Origin: a phage
Sequence record: PZ445418.1
DNA: 43,104 nt
Reading direction: 5' to 3' (one strand)
Shown here: positions 10,165 through 38,463 of the stretch, in pieces
How positions within the stretch are numbered: the stretch's first letter is position 1
How the letters are laid out: every line of letters begins with the position of its first letter
Made by a program: the position numbers and the translations under genes
The notes under the pieces: model-generated
The model's database searches: none
What the model saw: the letters and a program-made list of their open reading frames with translations, nothing else
What the model was told of the DNA's origin: nothing

Positions 10165-10527
10165 ATGGCAAAAGCACCACTCTTCACACTTGACCCTAAG
10201 CCGACCTTTAAGCTGCCGATTGAGATCCCGCGCCCCGGTGAAAACGAACCGGGAAAAATGACGTTTACCGTGCGCCACCGCCCGATCGACGAATTTTCGC
10301 AGACCATGCAGGATACTGAGCGCAAGTTGTCGGAGTATGACGACAATGACCCTGACGGCTTTAACGTTATGGTCGAGGCCATAATGCACGTCGCTGAAGG
10401 CTGGAATCTGCCGGACGAATTTAACGCGGAGAACGTCCGCCGCCTGGTGGTCAACTACCCGCGCGCGTTCGGCGTGTTCCATACGTCGTACTACCTCGAA
10501 CTGATGGGATTGCGTGAAAAAAACTAA
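10165..10527 (+). CDS. tail assembly chaperone (G-like)
   Basis: 120 aa acidic protein directly upstream of tape measure; ends at slip site; RBS GGAGAA. Confidence 0.6.
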   Translation: MAKAPLFTLDPKPTFKLPIEIPRPGENEPGKMTFTVRHRPIDEFSQTMQDTERKLSEYDDNDPDGFNVMVEAIMHVAEGWNLPDEFNAENVRRLVVNYPRAFGVFHTSYYLELMGLREKN

Positions 10528-10841
10528 TTGAGGCGGCGCGACGCTTTTACGGCCCGCCGCCACCCTCCGAAGATTTAGCCGCGAGTTTATGGGGGGCGGC
10601 CCCTGAAGACGTTTGCCCTCCGGTCGCACTATGGCCCGACAACGCGAAGGTAGTCGCAGTCTTCACCGATTGCTCCACGCAATGGCGCACCGGATTCGGT
10701 GGCGCATACGGCATCGACTACGGCGTACTGGAATGGCTGTTTAGGATGCACGGCATCGAAAACGCACAACGTGCGTTTAAAGATATCAAACTAATGGAAC
10801 GCGTTGCGCTGGATGAAATGGCGCGGCAGAACCCAGCATAA
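10165..10841 (+). CDS. tail assembly chaperone GT-like fusion via programmed -1 frameshift
   Basis: heptamer A_AAA_AAC (10518-10524) just before G stop; -1 frame stays open about 107 codons to TAA at 10839-10841 with no start codon of its own. Confidence 0.5.
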
Positions 10842-10845
10842 CGAA

Positions 10846-11161
10846 GCGGGACAGGGGTGCTGTCCCGTTCTGTCCCGCCCACAATGAATCTGCATACCTA
10901 TTCAGTTTTACTGCATAAACTAAAAGCGGGACGGCGGGACGTCCCGATCTGTCCCGCCCCAGAAATGTGAATACCTATTCAGTTTTACTGCATAAAACAA
11001 ACGGGACAAAAAGCGGGACAGAATGGGGCGGGACAGATCGGGACGTCCCGCCGTCCCCCTCAGTGCTGCCGCGGGTTTCGGCCGATCGGGACAGGCGGGA
11101 CAACCACCAGTCTTTCAGACTAGACGGGGGTCAATGGCCCCCCTCGTCTGAGACTGAATAA
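10846..11161. repeat. iteron element A: GCGGGACA(G/A) array, two 26-bp box repeats, terminal GC-rich hairpin
   Basis: box ATACCTATTCAGTTTTACTGCATAAA at 10894-10919 and 10971-10996; about 9 forward and 5 reverse GGGAC units incl. palindromes GGGACGTCCC; hairpin 11107-11158. Confidence 0.8.
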
Positions 11162-21334: not shown

Positions 21335-21363
21335 AGTATTGCACCGCTCAACCAAGAATGCAA
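21335..21363 (-). promoter_or_regulatory. sigma70-like promoter TTGCAT-17-AATACT for lipoprotein gene
   Basis: hexamers with 17-bp spacer; -35 overlaps TGCAACCAAT (21359-21368). Confidence 0.4.
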
Positions 21364-21384: not shown

Positions 21385-23388
21385 ATGGCAGCGGGTACAC
21401 TATCCGTAACGAATAACAGCAAGGCGGTAGTCGGTGTCGGCACGACGTTCACCGCGTTTAAAGCTGGCGACTTCTTAACGTTGGTGGTGGGGCAAGTCCC
21501 TTACACTGTTGCTATCGCGTCCGTCGAAAGCAACACCGCGCTTACGCTGGTGCTGCCGTTCGACGGCCCCACGGCAACCGGCCTTGCCTGGGATGGCGTT
21601 GCGCGTGATACCATGTCCCTGGCGACGATGGGCGTAACAGTCCAGGCGCAGAAAGCATTGCGCTTGATGATTGCAGATGAAAACAACTGGCGTGCCATCT
21701 TCGGCGACGCTGAAGAAATCACAGTGACGTTACCAAACGGGCAGGTTATGCAGGGCATGTCATGGGGCTATCTGTCAAGTCTTCTAAAAGACGTTGACCC
21801 GGTGGAGCTTCAGAATATTGCCAACCAGGCTGTAACCGCGAAAAACGATGCTGTGTCTGCCAAGAATGATGCGCAGACTGCGAAGACTGCCGCAGAAACA
21901 GCGCGCACGCAAGCCCAGTCGGCTAAGACCGCCGCAGAGTCAGCACGTGACGACGCGCAGACGGCTAAGACCGCCGCAGAAACAGCACGCACCCAGGCAC
22001 AGACCGCGAAGACCGCCGCAGAAACCGCCAAGGGTGCGGCGGAAGACGCCCGCGATGAGGCGAAGCAATATGCAGAGCAAGCCGGAGCACCATATAAGCA
22101 GGTATTACAACCGCTACCAGACGTGTGGATTCCGTTTAACGATTCGCTGGATATGCTCGCAGGCTTCGCGCCCGGATACAAGACGGTTACGGTAGCCGAC
22201 GACGAGGTTACTATGCCGAGCGACAAGGTGGTGTCGCTCAAGCGCGCATCAACGGCAACATATATTAACAAGTCCGGCGAGTTTAAAATCGCAGAGATTG
22301 ACGAGCCGAGATTCGAAAAATACGGCCTGCTCATTGAAGGCCAACGCACTAACCACATCATCAACGGGGGCGCTCCGGCTGGCTGGGGCCACAGCACATC
22401 GGTTGGCGTGGTTACGGGTACAGATGCTTTCGGTTTCTTGTATGGAAAGTTTGGTATCGGCCAGGGCGACGTGGGCAGTACGACTGTGCTTAACCTGGCT
22501 TCCGTAACATCAGCAAACAGTCTGGATACTTCCGGCGTCGATAAGTATGTAACGGCGTCATGCCGCTTTCGGTCCGACAAGGATGTACGTCTTCGTGTGC
22601 GTTTTGCAGAAGGCGCGGATCAAGGCAGCATGGCTTTCTCTGGCGACGCGTACATTAAATTAAGCGATTTGTCCGTGTCTAAGACGGGTGTCGCGGCAGA
22701 CCGCATTACCGTAGAAGTCGAGAAAGACGAAGCCACCGGATGGAATCGTGCGGTGGTAATGCTGCAAGCTACCACGGCGCTGGTGAACGCGCAGATCCAG
22801 ATCTCGCCAGTGAGCAGTTATGCTGCCGGTGATTATATCGAACTGGCAACTCCGCAGGTTGAGTTAGGGATCGGGGCGTCTTCATATATCATCTCCGGCA
22901 CATCTCCAACCACACGCGCTAGCGATATGGTGACGGTACCGGCTAACCGCAACCTGTATAACCTGCCGTTTACGGTGCTTGTAGAAGTGCACAAGAACTG
23001 GTCTAAGGCGCCGAACGCAGCGCCGCGTGTATTCGACACCGGCGGTCATCAATCGGGTGCGGCTATTATCCTGGGATTCGGGTCTGGCGATATTGACGGG
23101 TATCCGTACTGCGACATCGGCGGTGCTCACAGACGTTTGAATGAAAACGCAGGGCTTAAGCATATGGTTATGGGTATGCGTGTGAAAGAAAACCAGGACA
23201 CTTGCGCGGTGAGTAACGGCATTCTTTCGACCGAATCGAAAACCACATGGACCTACCTGAAAGGGTCTGCGACGCTGCGAATCGGGGGTCAAACAACGAC
23301 TGGAGACAGACACCTGTTCGGGCACGTCCGTAACTTCCGTATCTGGCATAATGCGCTGACCGACCTACAAATGGGGGAATTAGTGTGA
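21385..23388 (+). CDS. tail fibre protein (Ala-rich repeat shaft, C-terminal lectin-like domain)
   Basis: RBS GAGGA; tandem TAKTAAETARTQAQ-type repeats; C-terminal F-R-I-W-H-N-A-L-T-D segment resembles LamG/ConA-like fold. Confidence 0.65.
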   Translation: MAAGTLSVTNNSKAVVGVGTTFTAFKAGDFLTLVVGQVPYTVAIASVESNTALTLVLPFDGPTATGLAWDGVARDTMSLATMGVTVQAQKALRLMIADENNWRAIFGDAEEITVTLPNGQVMQGMSWGYLSSLLKDVDPVELQNIANQAVTAKNDAVSAKNDAQTAKTAAETARTQAQSAKTAAESARDDAQTAKTAAETARTQAQTAKTAAETAKGAAEDARDEAKQYAEQAGAPYKQVLQPLPDVWIPFNDSLDMLAGFAPGYKTVTVADDEVTMPSDKVVSLKRASTATYINKSGEFKIAEIDEPRFEKYGLLIEGQRTNHIINGGAPAGWGHSTSVGVVTGTDAFGFLYGKFGIGQGDVGSTTVLNLASVTSANSLDTSGVDKYVTASCRFRSDKDVRLRVRFAEGADQGSMAFSGDAYIKLSDLSVSKTGVAADRITVEVEKDEATGWNRAVVMLQATTALVNAQIQISPVSSYAAGDYIELATPQVELGIGASSYIISGTSPTTRASDMVTVPANRNLYNLPFTVLVEVHKNWSKAPNAAPRVFDTGGHQSGAAIILGFGSGDIDGYPYCDIGGAHRRLNENAGLKHMVMGMRVKENQDTCAVSNGILSTESKTTWTYLKGSATLRIGGQTTTGDRHLFGHVRNFRIWHNALTDLQMGELV

Positions 23389-23642
23389 AAGACTTAACGC
23401 TGAAGTTTGAAAGCAAGGCCGCTTTTGCAGCCTTCAAAGCGCAATTGAATTGGGACGAGAACGAGGCGTTGCAGGATGATATTCTGCTTGATGTCATCGG
23501 CAACGTGTATGAGGGTGATGAGGATAATCTCGTTGCCGTTGAGGGGTACTTCGTTAACGTGCGCATTCTTGACGACGACCACGGCATTAACTTTGAGCAG
23601 TATGCCGTTGTGTTAGACTCCCCACTTCGTCAATGGGCTTAA
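23385..23642 (+). CDS. small acidic hypothetical protein
   Basis: 85 aa, overlaps fibre stop; no motif. Confidence 0.35.
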   Translation: MKDLTLKFESKAAFAAFKAQLNWDENEALQDDILLDVIGNVYEGDEDNLVAVEGYFVNVRILDDDHGINFEQYAVVLDSPLRQWA

Positions 23643-23653
23643 GAGGGTAAATC

Positions 23654-23950
23654 ATGGTTACTAAAACAAACATCCCCGCGGATATTACGGCGCTGAAAAA
23701 TTCTACTTCATCATTGTCGTCTGACAAGATGGATAAGTCAGCCAATTTGTCGGACCTGGCAGACAAAACTGAGGCGCGAAGTCACCTTGGTTTAGGGTCA
23801 GCAGCCACGTTGGACGTAGGGGGTAGCAGCGGAAACGCGATGGAGGTTGGCGCTTTCGGCCTCGGTCGCCCGGATGGTGCTTATGTTTTCAACACAACCT
23901 CGCAGGATGCGATATTAGCCGAACTTGAAACTAAGGGGTTGTGTGTTTAG
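23654..23950 (+). CDS. tail fibre N-terminal module protein
   Basis: contains S-A-N-L-S-D-L-A-D-K...A-R-S-H-L-G-L-G-S-A-A-T motif common at tail fibre N-termini. Confidence 0.5.
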   Translation: MVTKTNIPADITALKNSTSSLSSDKMDKSANLSDLADKTEARSHLGLGSAATLDVGGSSGNAMEVGAFGLGRPDGAYVFNTTSQDAILAELETKGLCV

Positions 23951-24533
23951 AAATAACCAACAAATTGCGGCCCCGTGGGATATTTGGAACTATTCATCGA
24001 ACCTATTCTTCAGGGCTGGCGATACCTACAGCATGATAAGTATACCGTTCGAACAGGCCGGGAAAATAAAGGTTTTTGGTGGTGCGGCTGGGTTTGGGTG
24101 GAAGACCGCTCGCACCATCTACGATACGGAAAACACGACCGTAGACTCTAACGGCTTCCTTAAGACCGCGTCGCCTATAGTAAAGGTTTTTAAAGACGGC
24201 AGTTTTGAGACAAACGAGCAATCGAAAGGTGCTACCGTAGAGCGAGTCTCTACTGGTGTTTACAAGATTTCCGGTGTTCTCGGCCTTAATTCCGAGGCAG
24301 TATGGGGTGGTGTCGGCGGCGGCTTTGAGATACCCGTGGACGTTAACAAGCAGGCCAGAATATGGCTTGATTATGAGGTTAATGCTGACGGGTCGATAGT
24401 TATGAAAACTTACCATCGAACACATGACTCGTCACCGTCTTTCGCTACCAATACAATTGACGGTTTTAATAATGGCGACCCAATTGATATCCCATCGGAC
24501 GCGTTCGTATCTGTTCGAGTTAACATGCCATAA
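23925..24533 (+). CDS. hypothetical protein, possible distal part of the fibre
   Basis: 202-aa ORF in a different frame overlapping end of 23654 ORF; in-frame GTG at 23943 after AAGGGG. Confidence 0.4.
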   Translation: MKLRGCVFRNNQQIAAPWDIWNYSSNLFFRAGDTYSMISIPFEQAGKIKVFGGAAGFGWKTARTIYDTENTTVDSNGFLKTASPIVKVFKDGSFETNEQSKGATVERVSTGVYKISGVLGLNSEAVWGGVGGGFEIPVDVNKQARIWLDYEVNADGSIVMKTYHRTHDSSPSFATNTIDGFNNGDPIDIPSDAFVSVRVNMP

Positions 24534-24568
24534 TGAGAAGGGGCCATCCAGATCGCAAATCAGTAATT

Positions 24569-34706: not shown

Positions 34707-35135
34707 TTAGTCTTCCAGTTCGAAATAGGTTTCGACGATTTCTTTCAGATCTTTGTGGAAGTCTTCGACGTCGTCATCTTCCAGCTTGGCGATTGATTTG
34801 ATCTCAAACGCTTCCAGCAGGTCGTCAAATTCGTCGTTCGCGTCGTCGTCGTCACCACCAGCGATAATAGCGGCGTACTGTTTGATCTCATCGCGCATCT
34901 CTGCCAGCGGGTCGGCATCTTTCTTACCTTTTCCTTTCGCCGGAGCTTTTTTACCCTTCGCTGGTTTTTCGTCTTCGGCTTCATCGTCGTCATCTTCTAC
35001 GACTTCTTTTTTGGCCTTAGACGGCTTCTTGTCTTCCTGCTTACCAACGGCAGCGCCAACGGTTTCATAATGCTTAGCGATGGTTTCCAGTGCTACTACG
35101 CCGCGAGTAATCAGGTTTACGATTTGCTCAAACAT
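34707..35135 (-). CDS. acidic/Lys-rich early protein, first gene of leftward operon
   Basis: 143 aa from ATG at 35135 with GGAG RBS; runs DDDDEAEDE, GGDDDDANDEFDD, LEDDDVED plus KPAKGKKAPAKGKGKK; track ORF extends upstream to 35363. Confidence 0.5.
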   Translation of the reverse strand: MFEQIVNLITRGVVALETIAKHYETVGAAVGKQEDKKPSKAKKEVVEDDDDEAEDEKPAKGKKAPAKGKGKKDADPLAEMRDEIKQYAAIIAGGDDDDANDEFDDLLEAFEIKSIAKLEDDDVEDFHKDLKEIVETYFELED

Positions 35136-35331
35136 GGTATATCTCCAATTGGTTAAGTTTAGGTGTCGACCATTAACCTCGTCGGTGGCCTTAACATATT
35201 GCCTGGTTACGCGTTCTCCCGTTCGGGTAGTGGACCAGGTTATATAATCACGGTTGGGAATCCTGACACTTCGATCCGGCCCCTGCGTCGCCCCTCTCCA
35301 GTTTGCGTCCTGCATCCTGTCGACGGAGTGC

Positions 35332-35360
35332 ATATTAGATTGGTTGCAGAAGGGAGTCAA
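35332..35360 (-). promoter_or_regulatory. sigma70-like promoter TTGACT-17-TAATAT (leftward early promoter)
   Basis: good hexamers, 17-bp spacer containing TGCAACCAAT (35339-35348 on plus strand). Confidence 0.5.
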
Positions 35361-35370
35361 CAACTAATTT

Positions 35371-35406
35371 AAAAAAAAAGCGCCGAGGCAAAATGCAACG
35401 GCGCTA
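35371..35406 (-). terminator. intrinsic terminator on minus strand
   Basis: AGCGCCG / CGGCGCT stem followed on minus strand by nine U. Confidence 0.6.
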
Positions 35407-35428
35407 ACCAATAAGAGACAATGAGACG
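35371..35428 (-). ncRNA. candidate small RNA (about 58 nt)
   Basis: minus-strand promoter-like TTGAAA-17-AATAAT (35435-35463) followed within about 60 nt by the terminator above; no ORF. Confidence 0.25.
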
Positions 35429-35476
35429 GGATTTATTATTACACGCGTGCGCGCCCGTTTCAATATTCCAAAGGAG

Positions 35477-35505
35477 TTGACACCCTGCGGTTTTAGGTGT
35501 AGTTT
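35477..35505 (+). promoter_or_regulatory. sigma70-like promoter TTGACA-17-TAGTTT
   Basis: perfect -35, weak -10, upstream of HTH gene. Confidence 0.4.
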
Positions 35506-35536
35506 CATTGGTCATTAACCAACCGGAGACAGAACA

Positions 35537-38260: not shown

Positions 38261-38268
38261 AAATATAG

Positions 38269-38463
38269 TGAATAGTTATGCAGTTTTATTGCATAAAGTA
38301 AGCGGGACAGAAAGCGGGACAAACAAGGGGCGGGACAAAGCGGGACAGCACCCCCGTCCCGCCCCGGATGGCGCGGCTTCCAGAGGAGCGGGACAGCGGG
38401 ACAGCACCCCAGTCTTTCAGACTAGACGGGGGTCATCGGCCCCCCTCGTCTGAGACTGAATAA
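38269..38463. repeat. iteron element B (second copy of element A)
   Basis: box TGAATAGTTATGCAGTTTTATTGCATAAA, six GCGGGACA(G/A) units, terminal hairpin differing from copy A at only 2 positions. Confidence 0.8.

Follow-up and report, generated by a model that had tools for sequence, protein, structure and literature searches.

The second lateral fibre locus of Escherichia phage KarlBarth (Bas17, Dhillonvirus, MZ501088) is divided between two overlapping reading frames. Are these two coupled genes, one gene read through a recoding event, a pseudogenised receptor-binding protein or the trace of a sequencing indel? The sequence-only reading of this DNA had placed the four possibilities side by side. 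The window analysed here is the complete genome of 43,104 bp. Bas17 is listed in the BASEL collection as a sewage isolate with FhuA as the terminal receptor, and its genome was sequenced by Illumina NextSeq with 261x coverage. The elements of the junction were all found as proposed earlier: a 98-aa ORF with a fibre N-terminus stops at 23950, a 202-aa ORF opens at 23925, and between these points lie a GTG (23943) preceded by AAGGGG and a GT/TG run. The locus contains the following features.

21385–23388, plus strand: first lateral tail fibre gene, 667 aa (GeorgBuechner gp28 residues 1–256 align from 21385).
23385–23642, plus strand: 85-aa gene between both fibre genes (PHROG 1361).
23643–23647, plus strand: Shine-Dalgarno-like GAGGG, 6 nt before the ATG of the second fibre (read from the sequence).
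23654–23950, plus strand: ORF1, 5' fragment of the second lateral fibre gene, 98 aa (GenBank QXV81946.1).
23925–24533, plus strand: ORF2, 3' fragment of the second lateral fibre gene, 202 aa from TTG 23925, in the +1 frame relative to ORF1.
23939–23946, plus strand: mutation site, T(TG)3T versus T(TG)4T in all close relatives (alignment and seven contig junctions).
24132–24530, plus strand: PF25670 Phage_tail_C_2 domain, ORF2 residues 70–202 (Pfam, E = 1.4e-58).

ORF1 extends from ATG 23654 to a premature TAG at 23948–23950 and corresponds to residues 1–98 of an intact 293-aa protein. ORF2 ends with TAA at 24531–24533, and from TGT 23940 onward it is homologous to residues 97–293 of the intact protein. 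The sequence shared by the two ORFs contains GGGGT(TG)3TTTAG, in which the TTGTGTGTTT run occupies 23939–23948. The in-frame GTG at 23943 is located 4 nt downstream of AAGGGG (23933–23938), and GenBank starts the ORF2 piece from this GTG (QXV81947.1, 196 aa). Both the 98-aa and the 196-aa pieces are called 'putative tail fiber protein' in GenBank.

The gene order at the locus is the first lateral fibre, the 85-aa gene, the split second fibre and then genes on the opposite strand, so that the second fibre gene closes the rightward gene block. The mechanical ORF of the first fibre starts at 21358, and homology to relatives begins at ATG 21385. Its counterpart, GeorgBuechner gp28, is a 'lateral tail fiber protein', and the gene matches the PHROG tail families phrog_1419 and phrog_1980 and is intact in KarlBarth. 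At 21823, in the Ala/Lys/Thr/Gln-rich repeat region of the first fibre (about 21800–22100; AKNDAQTAKTAAETARTQAQ...), a 21-nt in-frame gap is present relative to a closely related 44.8-kb contig (L005). It resembles repeat-number variation in a coiled-coil shaft, and a repeat_region is annotated there in phage rolling. The start of the 85-aa gene overlaps the stop of the first fibre by 4 nt, and this gene has the identical position in every locus that contains the second fibre. Many Dhillonvirus genomes are about 92% identical to the KarlBarth genome. The 85-aa gene and the second fibre are found in only some Dhillonviruses (rolling, LM40P1, Ioannina and several metagenomic contigs), and GeorgBuechner has one lateral fibre only.

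Directly after the stop of the second fibre, at 24543–24547, a stretch of about 1.69 kb that is present in the closest relatives (L005 10897–12583) is missing from KarlBarth. In L005 this stretch contains three leftward genes of 191 aa, about 173–184 aa (DUF6378) and 156 aa. The alignment blocks flanking the gap overlap by 5 bp at the join, and GeorgBuechner gp29 and gp30 likewise have no counterpart in KarlBarth. KarlBarth has the smallest genome of its group (43.1 kb versus 44–46 kb), partly because this stretch is absent.

Further observations concern small reading frames elsewhere in the genome. Small ORFs that share the motifs MN..TYSVLLHK and GTDRDVPP form a tandem pair at 10857–11161, downstream of the tail-chaperone region and ahead of the tape-measure gene, and a third copy is located at about 38.3 kb (38268–38450). 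These ORFs are homologues of GeorgBuechner gp18 and gp52, and the copy at 10967–11148 matches gp52 in two frames by tblastn; the ORFs may represent either a small gene present in several copies or a regulatory element. Behind a gpG-like gene (frame 1, 10165–10524) lies a short conserved -1 frame ORF, a homologue of GeorgBuechner gp17 (10725–10838), and this region (10165–10838) is the usual place of the programmed -1 frameshift of the tail-assembly chaperone G/GT. At 35007–35515, GeorgBuechner gp48 is matched over the first 103 of its 232 residues only and the 36-aa gp49 is matched in two frames, which could reflect mosaic replacement or small indels in early genes.

When the two frames of the second fibre locus are joined (conceptual fusion ...ETKGLCV-FRNNQQ...), one protein of 293 aa is obtained, a short second lateral fibre or a subunit of one, and it matches PHROG tail fibre families, phrog_1591 among them. 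The N-terminal piece, ORF1, bears a conserved fibre N-terminus and has no match in Pfam. In ORF2, the C-terminal residues cover positions 1–132/133 of the PF25670 model with a score of 197 bits (cut-off 27). PF25670 is the Pfam 'Phage tail protein C-terminal domain'; it makes up the distal part of the fibre, presumably the receptor-binding end. The same module is also found in Kuravirus, T1-like and lambdoid fibres. From residue 36 to residue 293 the reconstructed protein aligns with the last 258 residues of SU10 gp12 (E = 1.9e-129), and over these residues the identity is 72–79% to phiEco32-like and T1-like fibres and about 40–50% to lambdoid side tail fibres. No model in NCBIfam covers the second-fibre protein. 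The intact protein was also modelled as a monomer with AlphaFold2 from an alignment of 23 sequences; the quality was poor (mean pLDDT 62, with values below 50 near the junction), and a Foldseek search of this model against the PDB returned no significant match.

The first 28 codons or so of the second fibre are near-identical between rolling and KarlBarth, after which rolling diverges (about 45% amino acid identity). This pattern agrees with a fibre in which the attachment region at the N-terminus is combined with a distal module that can be exchanged. Such an architecture has been described for the lateral fibres of small siphoviruses (PMC8594841). The rolling record itself (L004, MN850575, 3355–4187) is linearised inside its second-fibre gene, and the ORF runs off the end and is unannotated.

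The fused sequence was used as a query and retrieved an intact protein of 293 aa (P0001), 99% identical over 100% of the length, which is encoded on L005. The DNA of L005 and KarlBarth differs by three substitutions in about 900 nt and by one gap. The gap is located at the junction, which reads GGGGT-TGTGTGTG-TTTAGA in L005 and GGGGT-TGTGTG-TTTAGA in KarlBarth. One TG unit (2 bp) of the TGTGTGTG run is gone, and the place of the loss within the run cannot be assigned. In the intact allele the run encodes Leu-Cys-Val (TTG TGT GTG). After the loss of TG the codons become TTG TGT GTT TAG, a stop follows right after Val98, and the remainder of the gene is in the +1 frame. In KarlBarth, the N-terminal attachment/shaft region and the C-terminal domain are no longer on one polypeptide, with the TAG at 23948–23950 between them. 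The insertion of a single G into the GGGG run (23935–23938) was also considered as the lesion and was rejected, since the closest alleles share GGGG and differ only in the TG run.

Other relatives were compared at the same site. Three further 293-aa members of the 90% cluster of P0001 were traced to six contigs (L007–L012). Together with L005 these contigs, which come from metagenome/SRA data of separate samples, read T(TG)4TTT and contain an unbroken ORF of 293 aa (882 nt) in 7/7 cases, with about 96.5–99.7% nucleotide identity to the KarlBarth allele. Intact second-fibre proteins of 293 aa are found in LM40P1 and among metagenomic proteins (P0001, P0123–P0125 and P0002). In LM40P1 (three records, about 83% nucleotide identity) one ORF of 293 aa continues as ...YGLCVFRNDLQIAAPW... 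at the place where KarlBarth has ...KGLCV* / CVFRNNQQIAAPW in two frames, and P0002 (a cluster of 28 sequences) is likewise a single ORF. More distant alleles encode the same motif through (TG)3 in frame or through other codons, for example GLTV. Exact-pattern scans with GAAACTAAGGGGT N4-10 TTTAGAAATAACCAACAAATTGC for either junction allele gave no match in viral_contigs/metagenome_contigs; this pattern was too specific because the close alleles differ at flanking bases.

In the best-matching phage records found by tblastn the module is in one piece, Ioannina excepted. The second-fibre copy of Ioannina (L001 3353–4234) has lost one nucleotide in each of two homopolymers: around codon 11 a TT is shortened to T, and close to the 3' end A6 is shortened to A5. 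As a result, the CDS annotated for this copy is cut short at either end. Real decay and sequencing errors are both possible for these deletions. The gene is thus disrupted in two of the few cultured Dhillonvirus isolates that have it, and intact in 7/7 environmental contigs. The split of a fibre gene at the GT/TG run, as suggested by the sequence-only reading, was borne out by the relatives, which are fused exactly there and have one TG unit more. Relatives with the same two separate ORFs, which that reading had named as evidence against a broken gene, were not found: one ORF is present in the seven close contigs and in the distant relatives examined, again with the exception of Ioannina.

The GenBank annotation implies synthesis of both the 98-aa and the 196-aa product, the latter through translational coupling or re-initiation at GTG 23943, and that they associate non-covalently into a working fibre or have separate roles. 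The lateral fibres of related phages are indeed built from one or several polypeptides (PMC8594841), and a Shine-Dalgarno-like AAGGGG is followed, 4 nt further on, by the in-frame GTG within the last codons of ORF1. From its sequence the start of the 196-aa fragment is plausible, and the fragment may be made. However, AAGGGG and GTG are already present in the intact alleles, where they encode Lys-Gly and Val; because they are ordinary codons there, they have not evolved as a start site. The two-ORF arrangement exists in no relative compared and is a singleton state without evolutionary history. The break also does not fall between modules or in a linker, and instead lies inside the motif G95 L96 x V98 x R100 N101, which is invariant in the 23-sequence family alignment. 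A functional split gene is very improbable.

A full-length fibre could also be produced from the two frames by a frame shift at UGU_GUU_UAG, either as an evolved mechanism or as leaky compensation of the indel. A -2 slip of the P-site tRNA-Val from GUU to GUG would give GLCVFRNN, and a +1 slip would give GLCV-RNN. Perfect cognate re-pairing is possible for the -2 slip, as GUU and GUG are both Val codons and overlap at -2. The next codon in the 0 frame is a stop, which creates a 'shifty stop' context, and the SD-like AAGGGG is located upstream. Shifts of -2 next to stop codons were reportedly described by Weiss et al. in 1987. Low-level compensatory frameshifting at 'savior' indels has been documented elsewhere (PMC5009743).

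Several results argue against such a recoding site. The overlap of the two ORFs is conserved in no relative compared, and the site is therefore not a programmed one. No stable RNA structure was predicted downstream (fold of 23925–24030, z = -0.85 versus shuffles), and no canonical X_XXY_YYZ or CUU_UGA-type motif is present. All the local sequence elements are ordinary coding sequence in the intact alleles; AAGGGG in particular consists of Lys-Gly codons there and is not a purpose-built SD stimulator. At the junction, nothing of note emerged from a scan for promoters and terminators. Shifts of -2 without stimulators are normally rare. It is highly doubtful that recoding explains the locus. The same low probability applies to the specific case in which a -2 slip at UAG would partly compensate the deletion and give a product identical to the wild-type 293-aa fibre. 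If that case were true, a population would contain a few functional second fibres, and the TG run would dim fibre expression in a leaky, reversible manner and would not be the mark of a dead pseudogene.

Since the lost TG equals one repeat unit exactly, the TG run, a simple-sequence repeat, could in principle be a contingency locus, a hypermutable on/off switch that makes the second fibre phase-variable. In the case of lambda, hypermutability of a side-fibre gene has been discussed (PMC2762979). However, the tract has only 4 units, its length is the same in 7/7 close relatives, and the repeat itself is unconserved in distant alleles. The motif TGTGTG occurs 14 times in the KarlBarth genome versus 19 ± 4 expected; it is not enriched, and a TG run is no more frequent than by chance. 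The non-random feature of the locus is instead that its two frames combine into a single 293-aa protein with 99% identity to intact proteins from other sources. Phase variation is the least probable of the readings considered and can be given almost no weight.

Is the lesion genuine, and when did it arise? When KarlBarth was compared with four distinct close alleles, the TG gap was the sole column in which it differed from all the others, and no private substitution was observed. The TG loss is the only private difference, so no decay has occurred since the break and the event is recent. Judged from the alignment, the lesion is without evolutionary depth and would be either very recent or an artefact. 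In the latter case the phage itself would have (TG)4 and an unbroken gene for 293 aa, and one TG would have been dropped from the consensus. A mixed population of both forms in the stock is also conceivable. An error would look much the same, as a lone 2-bp indel within a short repeat of an allele that is otherwise free of private changes, and the two 1-nt homopolymer deletions of Ioannina show that indels of the second-fibre gene occur in deposited records.

The sequencing data and the remainder of the genome speak against an error. The consensus is based on Illumina NextSeq reads with 261x coverage. At such depth, consensus errors of Illumina sequencing in a dinucleotide repeat of 4 units are very rare. 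In the 19 kb aligned to L005, all other gaps were multiples of 3 or compensated pairs in a diverged stretch, and no other uncompensated frameshift was found there or in the core genes. The large GeorgBuechner proteins that have a counterpart in KarlBarth were all matched in a single frame. An artefact is therefore unlikely, although a little less so than the readings discussed above, and we infer that the deletion is real and not a consensus error. Among the four alternatives raised at the outset, the pseudogenised receptor-binding protein is now best supported. Coupled genes and recoding found no support as evolved features, and the sequencing indel is unlikely given the 261x Illumina coverage and the otherwise frameshift-free genome.

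Our preferred reading, to which we give a probability of roughly 80%, is that the TG loss is a very recent, real 2-bp slipped-strand deletion that inactivated the second lateral fibre. Replication slippage would have removed one TG from the (TG)4 run. Translation from the normal start ends after residue 98, as the sequence shows, and the resulting stub would keep the N-terminal attachment region and lack the PF25670 domain. The distal 196 aa would at best be made alone from GTG 23943, without an anchor on the virion. With a stub that has no distal domain and a 196-aa piece that has no anchor, the second fibre would therefore be lost. Going by its sequence, the second fibre of KarlBarth is most likely non-functional. 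No polar effect is expected, because the second fibre is the last gene of the rightward block. The TG deletion is most likely an ordinary inactivating mutation, a known kind of event, and not a recoding device.

The conditions of isolation suggest why the loss could persist. The BASEL authors proposed that the lateral fibres of Dhillonvirus recognise the O-antigen, and stated that without O-antigen these phages do not depend on this recognition for access to their porin receptor; by these accounts the fibres are required solely for passage through the O-antigen (PMC8594841, PMC11990801). KarlBarth was isolated on O-antigen-less K-12, and selection on the second-fibre gene would therefore have been relaxed. 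KarlBarth grows on K-12 despite its split second-fibre gene. By analogy with fibre loss in laboratory lambda, we infer a scenario in which the loss was tolerated, and possibly favoured, on the K-12 strain used for isolation and plaque purification. Positive selection for the loss would presuppose that the second fibre binds something on K-12.

BASEL is a widely distributed reference collection, and the Bas17 records list two 'putative tail fiber proteins'. The text of the BASEL collection paper contains no mention of a frameshift. If the two pieces are halves of one inactivated gene, the annotation should become that of a frameshifted/disrupted gene. The host-range and adsorption phenotypes of Bas17 would then be those of a mutant that probably lacks the second lateral fibre. 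Wild-type phage should be recovered once a TG is put back, and this would be a simple route to what the widespread PF25670 module recognises.

The locus can be compared with several known systems. In shifty-stop and compensatory frameshifting (prfB-type +1 and 'savior indel', PMC5009743; the -2/+2 shifts reported by Weiss et al. in 1987), a re-pairable P-site codon is also located by a stop and an SD-like element is also present upstream. In contrast to these systems, the KarlBarth site is unconserved, has no stimulatory structure, has non-canonical spacing and motif, and arose through a recent deletion instead of having evolved.

Kuravirus SU10 gp12 (long tail fiber proximal protein, PDB 7z47 chain D, 786 aa) and the phiEco32-type tail fibres share the C-terminal module with the reconstructed KarlBarth protein, which is about 72–76% identical to Kuravirus fibres. 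However, gp12 is a fibre of a podovirus, with a different N-terminal part of 526 residues that docks on an adaptor. Only residues 1–90 of SU10 gp12 were modelled, and the shared module is thus without a solved structure (PMC9509320).

The intact second fibres of other Dhillonviruses have the same locus (first fibre, 85-aa gene, second fibre, then leftward genes), the same N-terminus and the same PF25670 C-terminus. They differ from KarlBarth in being single ORFs with T(TG)4TTT (TTA TGT GTG in LM40P1), whereas KarlBarth is one TG short. The 'putative tail fiber protein' of Ioannina (WFD55448.1) is the same gene, also disrupted in the deposited genome of a cultured Dhillonvirus. Its lesions are the two 1-nt homopolymer deletions and its allele is about 83% identical.

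The closest parallel outside the genus is the stf gene of lambda PaPa, which is present as orf401/orf314 versus the intact stf of Ur-lambda. Laboratory lambda lacks side fibres owing to an stf frameshift (PMC12617516). When Stf+ lambda is plated, large-plaque mutants quickly arise, and frameshifts were found in 15/19 of those with mutated stf (PMC2762979). In both phages, a side fibre of a siphophage is divided into two ORFs by a small indel in a laboratory-propagated isolate. Wild relatives have the gene as one ORF. The lambda fibre can be dispensed with on K-12, and according to the literature on Dhillonviruses this would also hold for KarlBarth. As with lambda PaPa, the seven environmental contigs are intact while KarlBarth has (TG)3 and is split. 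The two cases differ in that the Dhillonvirus fibre is a 293-aa protein with the PF25670 module and Stf is T4 gp37-like, and in that the KarlBarth lesion is the loss of a dinucleotide repeat unit. If the inactivation is true, KarlBarth would be a second, independent lambda-stf-like case, in which an accessory fibre was lost on isolation with rough laboratory strains.
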